Assembly: GCA_013115125.1 (NCBI GenBank)
Contig: JABANN010000169.1
Coordinates: 1 to 58,329, forward strand
Reading direction: 5' to 3'
From: Perkinsus olseni
Taxonomy: Eukaryota
Length of the DNA: 58,329 nt
Positions 3,857 through 58,329 of this stretch are shown here, piece after piece (positions within the stretch are counted from its first letter, which is position 1; the number at the start of each line of letters is the position of its first letter). The notes below the pieces were generated by a model, which saw only the letters and a program-made list of their open reading frames with translations, was not told the origin of the DNA and made no database searches. The translations under genes were made by a program, and so were the position numbers.

Positions 3857-5839
3857 TCAGTCATCATCACTATCCAAGTCGATGTCCACCACCTCTCGGG
3901 GATAGGCAGGAGGCAGGTCACCGTGTTTGTGGGCAAGACGATTGCGGACGCTCTTCGAAAGCATTTTGGGCGACTTGTTGTCAGCGTCCTCCAACAGGTC
4001 TATAATAACCTAGATAACAGAGAGATGCTTCACAATGGATACCAAAGGAGAAGACTCCCACGGCGGACCAGTGGGGCGTCCGTTGATCCACTACTGTGCG
4101 ACAGAACCGTAGAGTGAGGGAAAACTGCACCGGACTTACATCCCACCACTCAGGCTGCTGTAGGCGGTCGCAGAGGAGGCGACTTGCAGGCCGGTCCAAG
4201 ATGTTGATTTTCTTAATCTTGGACAGATCAGAGGGAGGCCCTCCTTTGAGAACCTTCCGGTTGTCGGCACGTGGTGAGAAGACTGGGAGATCAAACTGAT
4301 GCAGAGCATCCGTGGCAGACCTAACGTGTCTCTCACTATCCCTCTCACCTGGACCTCGAAGTATTCAAGATTCTCATCAAGTTGGAAACCGAAGGCTCCA
4401 CTCCAGCGTTTAATTATGTCCATCTGATAGCGACCTTCGAGGACCTTGTTCTCAACCTGAACTCCGAGGAAGACATCACCGGAACCGCCAAGGAGAGGAG
4501 AACTCCCATTACCGCGTTGTTCCTCCGTATAACTCCACCATAGACGCATATGAAATCACCCTTTCGGAAATCTTTTGTTGCTACAAGCTTGTATCCAGGA
4601 TACGCAGGATGGTTCTCCTCACAGCGAACAACTGAGATCTGAGAAAGGCCACAGTGTAGTAGTCCGTAAGCACATCGTGGATTGATTGCCACATCTGGAA
4701 CCAAACACAATAATCCTCAAATTTCAAACCGACCGACCCAGAATCGACACCTGAGGGATTCGAACCCTCGCGGGCAGAGCCCAACGGCTTAGCAGGCCGC
4801 CGCCTTAACCACTCGGCCAAAGTGTCTTCGAGAGACAACCGTGTCATGACCTAGCCGCCCCGTTACTATCCGCTCGTCCCGCGACAGTTATTGTTACAGT
4901 CGCGACAGTTACAGTGATTGTCTTCACGGACGCCGACGAGTCAATCTTGCGACCGCTGTGCAGAAGGAATAGATGAAGTTCTTCGCACGGAAACCGAATG
5001 ATGAATACACGCACAGAAGGACAAGTAGGAAGTTGAGAATGGAGGCATGACATCGCCGATGATATGTGCTATTACCCCTTTCTCTGGTCCTGGTTTCAGC
5101 GGGCATGGACGTGAACTAGGCACGGTTCTAAACTCGCCGAACAGGAGCGCCTCTCTCAATGCTGATGTATGACAGCCCCCCTCGGCTGTGACGAATCCAC
5201 CGTCCAAGAGCACCCCGTCATAATAACTGAAGCCCTCTTGCCAAGATGTTCTGCTTATTTTCATACGCCTCTCCTCGGTGAGGCTCGGCTCCGAGTTCAT
5301 CACATTGTCCCAGTAAGTGGGCCCGTAGTGCACAAGGATCTCCTGCTTGCGTCTTATCGGTTTGGTTGCGACCAAACTCATGCATTGAACGGGAAGGCTG
5401 TCGTGCTCCGCCATGGGGTTGTCTGGACAGGCATCGCGACTGCTCTTCAGAATAAAACTGGCATTGGGGTCGTCAGCGTGGTTGGCAAAGCGGCCTTCAT
5501 TGCCTAAGTGTTAAAACGCCCTCCCTGGGATTCGAACCCGCGACCTCTTACCCACCCACTCAGCATCAAGTACTAAATCCCAGCTGTACCGTTCACTTTC
5601 ATCAACGTTGTCAATGCCCGTGAAGTCAATTTTCTCGGTTGTAGGAGCTGAAGGATCGACATCCCCGGTTCGATCCCCCGCACCGGCATCTCACAAAAAT
5701 ATGTCACGTCCTTGCCCCGGGTTGACCTTTTCTGCAGGCTCCTCGCAGCACCTTTCCCTAATCCATCATTCTTGCCCTCAGCAAGATCTTGCCGCAGTTG
5801 GCCTTTAATGAACGATAACATCACGCTGCTCAACTCCAT
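3857..5839 (-). CDS. SET-domain protein (putative lysine methyltransferase), multi-exon; 5' end uncertain, may extend to about 6.8 kb
   Basis: Spliced LVLDAEWVGNEGRFANHADDPNA and LVATKPIRRKQEILVHYGPTYW (SET C-half motifs, 5650-5300); GYKLVATKDFRKGDFICVYGGVI (SET N-half motif, 4605-4525); acidic end VVDIDLDSDDD* at 3857. Confidence 0.75.
4745..4826 (-). tRNA. tRNA-Ser(GCT): tRNA-Ser (anticodon GCT)
   Basis: GACACTTTGGCCGAGTGGTTAAGGCGGCGGCCTGCTAAGCCGTTGGGCTCTGCCCGCGAGGGTTCGAATCCCTCAGGTGTCG folds into a full cloverleaf with a long variable arm, A and B boxes, and loop CTGCTAA. Confidence 0.96.
5504..5551 (-). pseudogene. 48-nt spliceosomal intron consisting of a tRNA 3'-half remnant (sense)
   Basis: GTAAGAGGTCGCGGGTTCGAATCCCAGGGAGGGCGTTTTAACACTTAG: variable-loop AGGTC, exact B box GGTTCGAATCC, then TTTT. 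Removal restores ...EWVG-NEGRFANH. Confidence 0.8.
5648..5694 (+). pseudogene. tRNA-Phe-like 3'-half remnant forming a 47-nt intron of the SET gene in antisense
   Basis: Plus strand CTGAAGGATCGACATCCCCGGTTCGATCCCCCGCACCGGCA resembles the tRNA-Phe(GAA) 3' half. The minus strand reads GTGAG...CTTCAG and its removal joins DVTYFS-PTTEK in frame. Confidence 0.7.
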
Positions 5840-6875
5840 ACCACAACTTGCACAACAATTGGGTTCGCTCAGATGAACAGTAGGACGGGCCTACCTGTAC
5901 ATCCTAGACACTGACGAGGTCGACCAACCCCTCGCTATCAGTCGATCGAAACTGAGGGATGAACTCATTCCTCGACAAACGTCCCTACCACAGTTTCGAA
6001 TACATAGTGAGTAGCGACCAGCGTATCCAACCTATCCGCAACTCACCAGCTTCAACATAAGATACAAACTACCATCCCATTAAAAACCGTATACTCATTT
6101 CCGAACTCCCAGCGCTGAACTACCGCGGAATATTATCCCGAAGGCATGCGGCAGCATTCCAAAGATATCTTCGCACTCGATATATTCCACCCTCCAACCC
6201 CCTCCTATCACCATTCCTGAGACTCCAAGCAAAGCCGTCTATAGTCGCTCGCCGGCAACTCGTGCAGGCCATGGATCGACTCGCGAAGGAACCTGCCCAA
6301 CCCAGTGAGTGGGACGCTTTTCGTGTCACCACGATTACTCCAGGAGCTCCAGATCAACCGTTTCCAGATCTTTCGCGTCCCCTCCCGCCCGCCGAACCCT
6401 GTCCTTCAATCGCTCCCACTCGCCCTGAATTAATTGACACTCCTACACCCATCAAGGGCAGTCCGTACGAGCAGCCTGTCTCCAAGACCGGGCCGATTCT
6501 GCTGCCCTCGAACACTCATCAAGAGCACTATCCGATCACACTTCTCCTCGCACACTTCAATCCATTCATCAAGGTCCTCCTGGGAGACCGCCATCAACAA
6601 CTGCCCCTGCCATTGGTGATTCCATCCAGGACTGTTAACTCGACACCGTAGGTTACTGGATGCTGCTCATTGCGAATTTGGTACCACTTCGAGGAGGCCC
6701 CGAGAGTAATGACCAGTATGCTGCCGCCATCACCGCCTTCGCCGCTGACGCCACTTGAAGGAGCATCATCGTAAGACTTTTGAGGAGAACTGTACGCTGT
6801 TCAACGACGACCATCATCAAATGCATTTACTATAGTAGCTAGAGGTGTCAGAATATTCTTCAGTATTGAAGGCAG

Positions 6876-7685
6876 CTAACCTTCAATAGACTGCCGTACC
6901 TGTGTAAAGCATGCTCGACCTCAAGATTCTCCTCAGTTCAATTACCAGTCTGCGAACCTTCTTCTTGTAGGCTGGATAGTCCTTCTTAAACTCAACCTGG
7001 CAAAAGAGGAATCTTAGCTTGCAGCGTGCAGGATACGGATAGGTCGGAGAATACTTACTGCTGCATCAACATTAGCAGGTGAATCCAAATTGGGCGAGGC
7101 CAGCATAGATATAACAGAAACCAAGATAGACTCCACACTCAGACTGCATAAAATACACCACCCTAGAATTGAACCAGGGACCTTTCGCATAGCATTACAT
7201 TGGTCTCCATCGTTCATCTGCGGACTCTAGTTCATTAAACTGGTCTGTTCCCGGTGGGTGAAGAATTGATATGCACACCCGTCCATCTAAAAACATTTTC
7301 AGTTCTCCCAAACTCCCAAATTCCCACCCTCCCCCGTCTACCAGGATAGACGTTGGGATGCCACATGGGCGTCTCGAAGCGCATCGCGGGCGGGTTATTG
7401 GGGAAGTCCTCAGGGAACTGCAGTATCGCCGAGAAGAGGCCTCCTTCGTAAAGAGAGTCCGGAGGGCCTGTCAGTTACGCGCTGGGAAAGAGGTCGTTGT
7501 TGTTATTATTACCTTCAAAACAGACACGCCACTTGAAGAAGTCAGAATCGTCTTCTAGACCGACCGAAAATCCACAGGAGTCGTCCCTTGTTAACTCTAA
7601 GATTCGACAAAGATACGCCCAACTTGACCTCAAGATTCGCCGTACCAATAAGCTGCTTTTTGAGAAGCTCGCGAGCAACAGACAT
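6876..7685 (-). CDS. Ubiquitin-conjugating enzyme E2, UBE2G/Ubc7 (Cdc34-like acidic loop) family, 7 exons
   Basis: MSVARELLKKQLIELTRDDSCGFSVGLEDDSDFFKW...GPPDSLYEGGLF...[63 protein letters not shown]...VRQSIEG*. All junctions are GT-AG and in frame. Confidence 0.95.
7144..7198 (-). pseudogene. 55-nt intron of the E2 gene consisting of a tRNA 3'-half remnant (sense)
   Basis: GTAATGCTATGCGAAAGGTCCCTGGTTCAATTCTAGGGTGGTGTATTTTATGCAG: T-arm CCTGG-TTCAATT-CTAGG still pairs (one G-U), preceded by AGGTC and followed by TTTT. Removal gives [11 protein letters not shown]. Confidence 0.8.
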
Positions 7686-8366
7686 CAAACTATACGGAAA
7701 CAACTGAGATTAATGAGAACTGTCAGTTAGTGGAGAGACGCGCTGGTATCATAGGTTGAAGGGTGCAAGATACGAAATAGCTCATCGATGCGATCACGAG
7801 TCGACCTCGCAAAGACGAAGCGAACGTCATTGCAACGGATTCTGCAGAGGTGTGGGATGTTCTGAATCTGAACATATCCTGGCACAGGCGTTTACGTAGT
7901 AGAGAGCTGGATTTTTTCGCTCACCGTTTACACGCAGCGCATAATCGTTCGGAATTCTGAAATCGCACCTCGGGGCCATCCCTGGGCTCTCTGCTCACCC
8001 TCGTGAACGCTGGCGGCGTATCCAAGGTCGATGCTTACAACGGACGAATAAAGCACCGAGGATAACGACATCCGTGGCAATAATCGCGAGTTCAGACTTG
8101 TGACGATGCGCGAGTTAATCTCTGGGCACGTCCACTCTGCTTGTCATTGCTTCGAAGTTGAGACCCATTACTGCAGAGCCGCTTGAGCGGACGTGCAGTC
8201 TTCGCAATGGCAGAGGGATAGCTCGTTCGCTCTCCCCCGCGGTGTCGATTGATCTGACCAATGATTCTTGCACTTAATGGTTTCATACTAGGTTTTAAGG
8301 CCGTTATCACAGTTTGTCCCCCAATCCAGTACCACTCCTTCCCCAACTCGTCTCTACACCACACCG

Positions 8367-39573: not shown

Positions 39574-40546
39574 TGGTAGAAGGGAGGAGTCTCGTTAAAG
39601 ACCTAGGAAAGAGTTACACTCGAGTATTTGGTTCAACCATTGACGTAAACGATGAGCCGGCATTTGTAGATCCCTGATTCTCGGCCGCAGCGCTGTGGCT
39701 TGGGAGAGTAACGCTATGAGCTACAAGAAAAAGTGCCGATGAAGACGTGGACGGGGCCTCCGAGATTTGAGATGCGATAAAGCGATTTCGGTGAGAGTGC
39801 ATTGACACTGAAACCGTCACACTGTGGTGACACATTCCCGACGGCCCAGTCGACCGGAAGAGGGGTCCAAGCGCGGGTACAACACCTCCAAAGGACTCAG
39901 TGGACAACTTGCACGCATGCACACTTCAGCTTAGGACGACGGCAACCTGTCTCGGCTCGACAGATACCATCACCACTGGTGACTAACTACCACTGGTAGT
40001 CTACCAGTACCTCATACCAACCTGCGTCTTGAACTCACGTGCATGAGGAGACGTGCAGAACTGCGCTTAGCTTAGTAAGCTGTAGATCACATTATGGTTC
40101 AACTCTTCTCGTGTCAAACTCTGCTTTTCTTTGAGCCCCATCTAACAGGTACCACTGAAGCTGTGAAGGGGACCACCGTCCAACGGGTCCGAGGTTCGAC
40201 CGAGAGTGAGGCTGATGGACCGCCGTAGATGGACAGAGCGGTCGATTGAGTCGACACAACCCAATCGTTACGGAGTCTCCGCAGGAAACCACAGTCAGAG
40301 AACAGAAGAAGACCACCTAATTGAACTCATCGATGTACCCATCCGTACAGAAAGCCCGTACAGTGACCACTAGTACAGTCTCACTTCGAATAAGCTCAGT
40401 CACTTATCACGGTCCACATTCGCACAGACCCAACCAACTCTATCACATTTCCAACCATGATAACTACACTATAATCCAACGACAAATACGACAATAGAAA
40501 CCCAGGAATACTATGATGACAACAACAACTGAACAGGAAGCTGTAG

Positions 40547-53899: not shown

Positions 53900-54318
53900 G
53901 TGCATGAGTCCTCCGAGAACCCGACAGTTGACAAAACGATCTTTGTGTTTGGCATGTCGTTGTTACTGCCTAGAGTGCCGGTCTCTCAGCCGTTATCCGC
54001 CCTCACCGGTTCCACCGCGCGGTATTGCCTGCTCTGTTCCCAGCCTTAGCCAGTGCCCGCGACTTCGGATGTCCGGATGTGATGACTTCCGCCTACCCAC
54101 CCGAGCTTAGTGGCCCCTTGGGATGGGCTGCTGATCTCCGACCGACTCTCGGCACGACACGTCATTCACTCAAATCTCGCCCCCGCATGGGTTACAGGTG
54201 GTCGCTACTCACCCGGCTTACTCAATAAAGGATGTCACGGCTCTATGCGGTACAATGTACACAAGATTGGGAATGGTGTGGTATGACATGCACACATATG
54301 TTTTGTGTAATATGTCCC
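53900..54318. repeat. Direct repeat copy 1 (over 400 bp)
   Basis: High identity to 57912-58329 (CCCGACAGTTGACAAAACGATC ... GGTATGACATGCACACATA), offset about 4012 bp. Confidence 0.95.
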
Positions 54319-57911: not shown

Positions 57912-58329
57912 CTATGGAAGTCCTCTTGAGGCCCGACAGTTGACAAAACGATCTTAGTGTTTAGCATGTCGTTGTCATTGCCTAGAGTGTCGATCTCTCA
58001 GCCGCTATCGACCCTCACCGGTTCCACCGCGCGGTATTGCCTGCTCTGTTCCCAGCCTTAGCCAGTGCCCGCGGCTTCGGATGTTCGGATGTGATGACCT
58101 CCGCCTACCCACCCGAACTTAGTGGCCCCTTAGGATGGGCTGCTGATCTCCGACCGACTCTCGGCACGACACGCCATTCACTCACATCTCGCCCCCGCAT
58201 GGGTTACAGGTGCTCGCTACACACCCGGCTTGTTTAATAAGGGATGTCACGGCTCTATCCGGTACAATGTACACAAGATTGGAAATGGTGTGGTATGACA
58301 TGCACACATACGTTTTGTGTAACATGTCC
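57912..58329. repeat. Direct repeat copy 2 (runs off the window end)
   Basis: Aligns with 53900-54318. Confidence 0.95.

Follow-up and report, generated by a model that had tools for sequence, protein, structure and literature searches.

Three minimal spliceosomal introns in two adjacent genes of Perkinsus olseni, a parasite of molluscs, were found to contain sequence resembling the 3′ part of tRNAs, strongly in two of the introns and moderately in the third, and an intact tRNA-Ser(GCU) gene is located within a longer intron of one of the same genes. The window analysed was a single stretch of 58,329 nt, in which the two genes are neighbours on the minus strand. The reading that we prefer, with moderate confidence, is that relics of different tRNA genes landed in pre-existing introns and were trimmed there, and that the relic in the UBC7 gene is under constraint, with its B box as the likeliest target. 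A second Perkinsus species has this relic in almost the same form, and the relic therefore may have a function. The origin of short-intron sequence is seldom visible, and these minimal introns still show their class of donor, namely tRNA genes. A literature search at the level of listings and abstracts returned no description of spliceosomal introns derived from tRNAs, either for Perkinsus or for any other organism.

Host genes and splicing

The SET-domain gene (3860-6608, minus strand) is split by 10 introns, including two of the tRNA-like short introns and the intron that houses the tRNA-Ser gene. RNA contigs covered the gene from 5076 to about 6603-6608 with six joints, and the loose end at 5076 resumed at about 4638. 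The annotated protein P0001 was placed on the window over all of its residues (684/684), with Pfam domain PF00856 precomputed for it. The adjacent UBC7-like E2 (E2 G1) gene (6660-7685, minus strand) was identified on the basis of RNA joints, identity to P0001 and P0004, and Pfam domain PF00179; its six introns (7597-7645, 7468-7512, 7287-7341, 7144-7198, 6997-7058 and 6900-6945, minus strand) are GT..AG each. Two UBC7 introns other than 7144-7198 have an exact 13-mer in common.

The introns were assigned as spliceosomal (U2-type) by 12 joints, each present in four of four RNA runs and all of them GT..AG on the minus strand. The introns at 5504-5551 (48 nt), 5648-5694 (47 nt) and 7144-7198 (55 nt), hereafter referred to by their first position, were skipped in the RNA contigs of all four runs, and identical coordinates were obtained by the mapping of P0001; the three minimal introns named in an earlier note on this DNA are thus real introns with GT..AG ends. 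Upstream of the relics, the exons code for conserved protein right to the splice site. Among the 16 introns of the SET and UBC7/E2-G1 genes, three carry tRNA 3′ parts. A finder joining ORFs across putative introns over the whole window proposed 410 candidates and recovered only two RNA-verified introns, a level of noise that ruled out its use for a census.

The 437-nt intron of the SET gene (4639-5075, minus strand, GT..AG) was supported by all four RNA runs and by the P0001 mapping; in each run the RNA beyond the loose end at 5076 was the window sequence ending at 4638. Within it, in sense orientation, lies the intact tRNA-Ser(GCU) gene (4745-4826, minus strand), which was detected by ARAGORN and by Rfam model RF00005 (62.5 bits, model positions 1-71), in agreement with the earlier note, which had placed an intact tRNA in this cluster. 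The intact gene shows directly that tRNA genes colonise introns, as had also been suggested there.

tRNA-like sequences in the introns

The 3′-half profiles, applied with nhmmer and as covariance model R1, were trained on 24 Escherichia coli tRNA 3′ halves only, and the 5′ half was searched for with R2. The tRNA-Ser gene scored 16.1 bits with R1 and 13.5 bits with R2. The best four of the 30 nhmmer matches listed were 5527-5548 (18.4 bits), 5662-5687 (10.6 bits), the tRNA-Ser gene (10.0 bits) and 7163-7183 (10.0 bits). None of 200 dinucleotide shuffles reached 18.4 bits, and 19 of them had at least one match of at least 10.0 bits; the shuffled windows held on average 0.105 matches of at least 10 bits per window, which gives a Poisson probability of about 2e-4 for three or more. 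With R1, the top three matches were 5517-5551 (17.1 bits, E 0.0058), the tRNA-Ser gene and 7154-7188 (13.9 bits, E 0.066), the remaining 12 of the 15 matches listed being at or below 9.1 bits.

An ungapped variable loop, T arm, acceptor strand and discriminator, all above background, were found in introns 5504 and 7144. Intron 5648 was the weaker case, as its R1 score of 7.0 bits at 5654-5688 on the plus strand is at noise level for the whole window, against 10.6 bits with nhmmer. The earlier claim that the intron interiors are tRNA 3′-half sequence holds strongly for 5504 and 7144 and moderately for 5648.

In intron 5504 (minus strand), the tRNA-like alignment begins at intron base 1, and the first 35 nt (5551 down to 5517) cover tRNA positions 39-73 in an ungapped alignment; the B box lies at 5529-5538. 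Its T stem retains three of five pairs, and a TTTT run (5516-5513) begins directly past the discriminator position. In the UBC7/E2-G1 intron 7144 (minus strand), positions 7188 down to 7154 likewise correspond without gaps to tRNA positions 39-73, the B box is at 7166-7175, and TTTT (7153-7150) follows right behind the discriminator position. The T arm of this relic is fully paired (one G-U pair), and the hairpin is present in the minimum-energy fold. In both sense relics the oligo-T run thus starts exactly at the predicted position of a Pol III terminator. In intron 5648 (minus strand), the tRNA 3′-half-like stretch (5654-5688, plus strand; B box 5667-5676) is antisense to the host gene, and two of five stem pairs are broken in the R1 alignment. 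The folds of introns 5504, 5648 and 7144 were not unusually stable in comparison to shuffles (z −0.59, +0.58 and +0.14, respectively).

The B-box motif GGTTCRANYC occurs seven times in the window versus 2.15 expected, a count reached by one of 100 shuffles, and four of the seven matches are within 4745-7198. The motif is exact in all three short introns. The earlier observation that the B box survives best is partly an effect of ascertainment, because relics without a B box would escape recognition. Pairwise, the three relics are identical at 17-20 of 35 positions, versus a mean of 19.2 between different E. coli tRNAs. Each intron accordingly resembles a different tRNA, as had been noted before, and since the relics are as dissimilar as different tRNAs, they point to separate events. 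No further copy of a relic was found in the 58-kb window by R1 or nhmmer.

None of the short introns amounts to a tRNA gene. The RF00005 gathering score (29 bits) was passed only by 4745-4826 among the tRNA-Ser gene and the three short introns, and a scan of 4400-7600 at E≤10 reported none of the three as a tRNA. When scored alone, intron 7144 gave 11.3 bits, below the gathering score, as a 5′-cut match to model positions 38-71, and introns 5504 and 5648 gave no match at E≤10. Over 4700-7700, only the true tRNA reached 13.5 bits with R2, and signals for a 5′ half beside the three relics did not exceed 4.8 bits, none being found at 5 bits; R2 over the whole window had the same outcome, with no 5′-half or A-box signal in the three introns. 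Two candidates were rejected, namely A-box-like letters in the exon upstream of intron 5504 (R2 3.6 bits) and a D-arm-like string in a 260-nt intron (6084-6129; R2 5.1 bits, E 2). A decayed whole tRNA, proposed earlier for an RRP6 intron near 40097, was not recovered, the scores there (R1 2.1 bits, R2 at most 3.2 bits) being at noise level.

Conservation of the UBC7 relic

The UBC7 relic could be compared with a second Perkinsus species by means of P0015, a read-through ORF from one Logan contig, which was back-translated, so that third codon positions are not determinable. Intron 7144 was identical to P0015 at 24 of 31 determinable aligned positions, whereas three neighbouring introns, with identity at 19/39, 13/35 and 16/34 positions (37-49%; Fisher P 0.001), had diverged as far as background. 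Within the tRNA-like block, where few positions are comparable, 19 of the 20 that could be determined were identical, as were 11 of 12 ‘codons’. The conserved part is not confined to the 11-nt B box but also takes in the variable-loop and acceptor portions, and the changes in the T stem are species-specific, at position 62 in the window and at position 64 in the relative.

This conservation suggests a constrained element, and with it that a 35-nt fragment of a tRNA gene can turn into such an element inside a Pol II gene. It is a new observation, and a constrained element would agree better with a putative TFIIIC or insulator site than with plain decay.

For the SET gene, no read-through ORF across introns 5504 and 5648 was found with the query ORF 5511-5690, and a representative search with ORF 4941-5510 gave four matches, none of which extends into the intron. 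Cluster look-ups yielded P. olseni models only, either spliced or with an unrelated read-through. A metagenome scan with P0004 returned 11 loci, among which genomic sequence from close relatives was absent: two were intron-less transcripts (L001, L002), two were other E2 types (L003, L005), one was a fragment (L011), and six were distant genomic E2 homologues (L004, L006-L010).

Origin and possible role of the relics

According to the preferred reading, different tRNA genes, amplified to hundreds of copies in Perkinsus, would insert into existing introns, and the tRNA-Ser gene in the 437-nt intron would be the arrival stage still visible. For P. marinus, 349 tRNA-Leu genes and 116 tRNA-Gly genes have been reported in addition to other tRNA genes (PMC3706591). 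Deletion toward the usual intron size of 45-60 nt would then leave a 3′ fragment, which is removed by ordinary splicing, as seen in the RNA contigs, with the pyrimidine and branch region probably supplied by the T-run and the nucleotides that follow it. The property under selection would most likely be the B box as a predicted DNA site for TFIIIC that, like ‘extra-TFIIIC’ sites, lacks a complete Pol III gene. Among the points against this scheme, conservation outside the B box is not predicted by a pure TFIIIC-site model, nor would random trimming alone predict that only 3′ halves are seen in the three introns, although the B box weighs heavily in detection.

An unlikely alternative is that the introns themselves were gained, tRNA-gene fragments with oligo-T tails having been inserted into continuous exons, for instance as filler in break repair, with splice signals recruited from insert and flanks. 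In intron 5504 the tRNA-like alignment does open with the very first base of the intron, its T-run lies where a pyrimidine tract is needed, and all six distant E2 homologues from the metagenomes are continuous across the site equivalent to intron 7144, with introns elsewhere. These homologues are, however, only 45-61% identical and come from distant eukaryotes, and therefore intron loss and gain are indistinguishable; among close relatives no orthologue lacking the intron was found. Intron 7144 was moreover already there in the second Perkinsus species, the upstream exons code for conserved protein up to the splice site, R2 found no 5′-half signal beside the relics, no target-site duplication was seen in the flanks by eye, and the intact tRNA-Ser gene indicates that tRNA genes do occupy roomy introns here.

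We give a slightly lower probability still to selection at the RNA level, in which a T-arm mimic or 3′ half in the pre-mRNA or in the excised intron would serve as an enzyme substrate or binding site, a partner of a 5′ tRNA half, a source of small RNA, or a splicing enhancer like the human nimtRNAs. The fully paired T arm of intron 7144 in P. olseni, with its hairpin in the minimum-energy fold, would suit such a role, but only three of five stem pairs are left in 5504 and in 5648, the 5648 relic is antisense to its host, and no fold was more stable than shuffles. The conservation in P0015, which goes beyond the B box to the variable-loop and acceptor portions, is consistent with an RNA element; yet R2 found no partner strand for the acceptor or anticodon nearby. 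In human reporters nimtRNAs promoted splicing, but the whole cloverleaf is reported to be required for their activity (PMC7722341).

It is improbable that the relic was instead kept tRNA-like in both species by ectopic gene conversion from abundant functional parent copies, with no selection on the intron. Very large tRNA gene families are described for Perkinsus (PMC3706591), and the entire 3′ half is conserved, beyond the B box; the tract is, however, just about 35 nt long, and each species has its own T-stem change, which counts against homogenisation because continuing conversion would erase such changes. Least credible is a single dispersed family (tRNA-headed SINE, MITE or introner) or a chance resemblance: introner families are present in related alveolates, and an exact 13-mer is common to two other UBC7 introns, but the relics are mutually no more alike than different tRNAs, lack an A box or 5′ half by R2 and have no further copy in the 58-kb window, and chance is excluded at about 2e-4 even before counting that all matches fall in introns.

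In a bolder reading of low probability, intronic ‘half tRNA genes’ consisting of B box, 3′ strand and terminator could be putative working elements, either sites bound by TFIIIC or pre-mRNA mimics of a T arm, which couple the Pol III/tRNA machinery to Pol II gene expression or splicing, and introns throughout the Perkinsus genome could repeatedly have drawn sequence from inserted tRNA copies, which might even have given rise to new introns. If relics occur genome-wide, Perkinsus would allow a direct test of whether tRNA-copy insertion feeds intron sequence or intron gain, and of whether a solo B box is active within the body of a gene; if they are a local accident only, they would be ordinary debris of amplified tRNA genes.

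Comparison with known elements

Yeasts and mammals have extra-TFIIIC (ETC) or solo B-box sites, whose definition is occupancy by TFIIIC and which are mostly intergenic. Like these, the relics have a consensus B box without an A box or complete Pol III gene, which in the UBC7 relic is conserved between species; unlike these, they are situated in introns of 47-55 nt and are visibly derived from tRNA genes.

Introners (PMC9860276), which form multi-copy families of near-identical elements, are alike in that a recognisable foreign sequence nearly fills a short intron, but the three relics differ from each other (17-20/35) and no other copy was found in the window. A tRNA-derived SINE does not fit either, as there is no A box or 5′ half and the relic ends at the discriminator and TTTT within an intron of 48-55 nt.

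The nimtRNAs, which promote splicing in humans, are tRNA look-alikes that originated from mitochondria and lie in introns (PMC7722341). They share with the relics a tRNA-derived sequence in spliceosomal introns, as well as conservation, which suggests a role and was seen here for the UBC7 relic. They keep the full cloverleaf and come from mitochondrial DNA, whereas the Perkinsus relics consist of the 3′ half alone, with no cloverleaf. The source of the relics looks nuclear, because there is no CCA end and a T-run is directly downstream. From the same genus, a report on P. marinus (PMC3706591) describes Dada transposons that split tRNA genes, along with abundant tRNA genes and fragments produced by mobile DNA. 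These too are tRNA-gene fragments, but Dada inserts at the A box (TAGCTC), which leaves a 3′ piece from near position 8. The P. olseni relics begin near position 39-41, with no transposon present.

Protein-coding genes with a tRNA gene nested in an intron are known in animals, and the SET gene is such a case, with the whole, sense-oriented tRNA-Ser(GCU) gene in its 437-nt intron. The three short introns differ in that they carry only 35-nt 3′ fragments, unable to form a tRNA, and are at the minimal intron size of the organism. The combination, within one gene, of relics in minimal introns and an intact tRNA gene in a longer one may represent a decay series.

Host genes and their introns

Perkinsus olseni is an alveolate parasite of molluscs. 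RNA contigs from four runs were placed against positions 4700-7700 and contained 12 skips, each present in all four runs and all with GT..AG borders on the minus strand. Among these are the three introns claimed in the earlier note, the exact borders of which were thereby confirmed, i.e. 5504-5551 (48 nt) and 5648-5694 (47 nt) in a SET-domain gene, and 7144-7198 (55 nt) in a UBC7-like E2 (E2 G1) gene, all on the minus strand. The same borders, with three further downstream introns, were obtained by mapping the public protein model P0001 to the window. The UBC7 and SET genes, both on the minus strand, have 6 and 10 introns, respectively, and 13 of these 16 are shorter than 70 nt. P0001 fuses the two genes, and its 339-nt 'intron' 6607-6945 is an artefact: the RNA contigs contain an intron at 6900-6945 and two separate transcripts, UBC7 ending at ca. 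6658-6663 and SET beginning at ca. 6603-6608. At the SET 5' end (ca. 6608), one run carried 9 loose letters, the reverse complement of which presumably resembles the 3' portion of the spliced leader of Perkinsus; if this likeness is true, it would indicate trans-splicing at the start of the SET transcript. The 41-residue exon 7343-7465 (minus strand) matches a P. olseni protein at 100% identity, and P. marinus and P. chesapeaki have close relatives of that protein.

A loose end at 5076 resumed in all four runs in window sequence ending at 4638, which adds a 437-nt intron (4639-5075) to the SET gene. The intact tRNA of the earlier note lies within it, as tRNA-Ser(GCU) at 4745-4826 on the minus strand, the same strand as its host, and is the sole tRNA gene of the window.

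tRNA 3'-half sequence in short introns

Seven matches to the B box consensus GGTTCRANYC occur in the window, where 2.15 are expected (seven were reached by 1 of 100 shuffles), four of the matches falling within 4745-7198. For the 3' half, an nhmmer profile of sequence only (tRNA positions 39-73) and a covariance model with the same columns and the T stem (R1) were used, together with a 5'-half model (R2). The training set was small and bacterial, comprising 24 distinct class-I tRNAs of E. coli K-12 only, from 29 detected by ARAGORN in chosen loci, and E-values of these custom models are rough.

The best four nhmmer matches of the window fell in intron 5504, with 18.4 bits, in intron 5648 on the plus strand (10.6), in tRNA-Ser (10.0) and in intron 7144 (10.0). 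None of 200 dinucleotide-shuffled versions of the window reached 18.4 bits, and 19 of them had a match of at least 10.0 (mean 0.105 matches per window). The chance of at least three such matches is about 2e-4, ignoring that all three fall in short introns of verified splicing, a class covering about 1% of the window. With R1, 5517-5551 ranked first (17.1 bits, rough E-value 0.0058), tRNA-Ser second (16.1) and 7154-7188 third (13.9, rough E-value 0.066), while the remaining 12 matches listed scored at most 9.1 bits. Both intron matches align to all 35 R1 positions without gaps, and TTTT comes directly after each of them, at the expected start of a Pol III terminator. Three of five T-stem pairs are intact in intron 5504. 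In intron 5648 two of five are broken and the R1 score (7.0 bits) lies inside window noise. Of the tRNA 3'-half likeness claimed for all three, that of 5504 and 7144 was upheld by both models, and that of 5648 by the profile of sequence only and the B box. The moderate 5648 match is antisense to its host and the other two are sense, in line with the claim of both orientations.

None of the three introns is a tRNA gene. The Rfam tRNA model reported none of them in a 3.2-kb scan at E≤10; on the isolated introns it gave a 5'-cut match to 7144 (11.3 bits, positions 38-71), and to 5504 just T-loop 13-mers of other families. Their folds were not more stable than those of shuffles (z -0.59, +0.58, +0.14). 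They are ordinary spliceosomal introns with interiors made of 3' fragments of different tRNA genes, a derivation strongly supported in 5504 and 7144 and moderately in 5648.

Derivation from one dispersed SINE, the alternative raised in the earlier note, finds no counterpart in the window: nhmmer and R1 detected no further relic copies, and R2 detected the true tRNA-Ser alone (13.5 bits) with no 5'-half signal beside the relics, all of which are thus 3' halves. Pairwise identity among the three 35-mers is 17-20 of 35 positions (10-21 with tRNA-Ser), similar to that between different E. coli tRNAs (mean 19.2/35), in agreement with the claim that each resembles a different tRNA. By these identities the relics are not one repeat family.

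Separately, the 'decayed whole tRNA' proposed for an RRP6 intron near 40097 scored 2.1 bits with R1 and at most 3.2 with R2, and was not accepted.

Conservation of the UBC7 relic

The data of a relative consist of ORFs called straight through introns (P0015, P0003), both on a single Logan contig of 4,732 bases. In their exons they resemble P. marinus, and they run through four introns of the UBC7 orthologue; no read-through ORFs across SET introns 5504 and 5648 were found in the protein collection. The orthologue of intron 7144 lies at the same place and is 53 nt long. When it and the window are translated in one shared non-coding frame, the residues agree at 13 of 17 codons; inside the tRNA-like block the agreement is 11 of 12 codons, and 19 of 20 determinable nucleotides are the same. 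A gapped back-translated alignment gives identity at 24 of 31 determinable positions for this intron, against 19/39, 13/35 and 16/34 for three neighbouring introns (Fisher P 0.001). In the 11 exon bases that immediately precede the intron, a reading by hand already gave two synonymous changes relative to P0015, and neutral divergence is accordingly high. As read from one ORF by back-translation, the relic is strongly conserved. The 3' strand of the T stem has one change of its own in each species, and the ancestral relic probably had a perfect T arm. In all six genomic metagenome loci with this E2 type (L004, L006-L010) the sequence runs uninterrupted across the 7144 site and introns lie elsewhere; these loci are too distant to separate intron gain from loss.

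Proposed origin and role

Copies of tRNA genes may have landed in pre-existing introns and been trimmed toward minimal intron size, with the T-run now doubling as a pyrimidine or branch region. Selection would have retained the relic in the UBC7 gene, the simplest reason being its B box as a putative TFIIIC site. Its conservation is not confined to the B box, reaching the variable-loop and acceptor parts, which brings two further explanations into play: the relic may have an RNA-level role, or may be homogenised by tRNA genes. For the landing of tRNA-gene copies, a large stock is documented in the genus: Kojima and Jurka (PMC3706591) report for P. marinus 349 tRNA-Leu, 116 tRNA-Gly, 46+9 tRNA-Ile and 23 tRNA-Tyr genes, with transposons inserting into them. 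Kindred ideas, i.e. intron-nested tRNA genes, human nimtRNAs, solo B-box/ETC sites and introners (PMC9860276), do not match fully, and the titles and abstracts searched held no report of tRNA-half introns.

Other features

At 4777 within tRNA-Ser, run X7 had T instead of G in ca. 55 of 122 depth units, and several contigs exit the gene at its two ends into differing flanks, which indicates other tRNA-Ser copies in the genome. The 260-nt SET intron 5952-6211 contains a separate 209-nt contig (5957-6165, depth 20.9, run X7 only), which may represent either a small RNA hosted by the intron or simply intron retention; a weak Rfam C/D-box snoRNA-like match (SNORD39, 18 bits, gathering score 35) lies at 6139-6179. 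An exact 13-mer is common to UBC7 introns 6900-6945 (6917-6929) and 7597-7645 (7626-7638) on the minus strand (two matches against 0.07 expected; two reached by none of 100 shuffles), which hints that these introns are related. Two P. olseni models from other contigs, P0002 and P0025, run through UBC7 introns 7597 and 7468 and differ there from the window in several residues, indicating clear intron-sequence divergence among haplotypes or copies within the species. Two full-length SRP RNA genes lie about 4 kb apart on the minus strand (53936-54217 and 57948-58229; Metazoa_SRP model, 97.3 and 104.4 bits), and with tRNA-Ser bring the Pol III genes on the contig to three.
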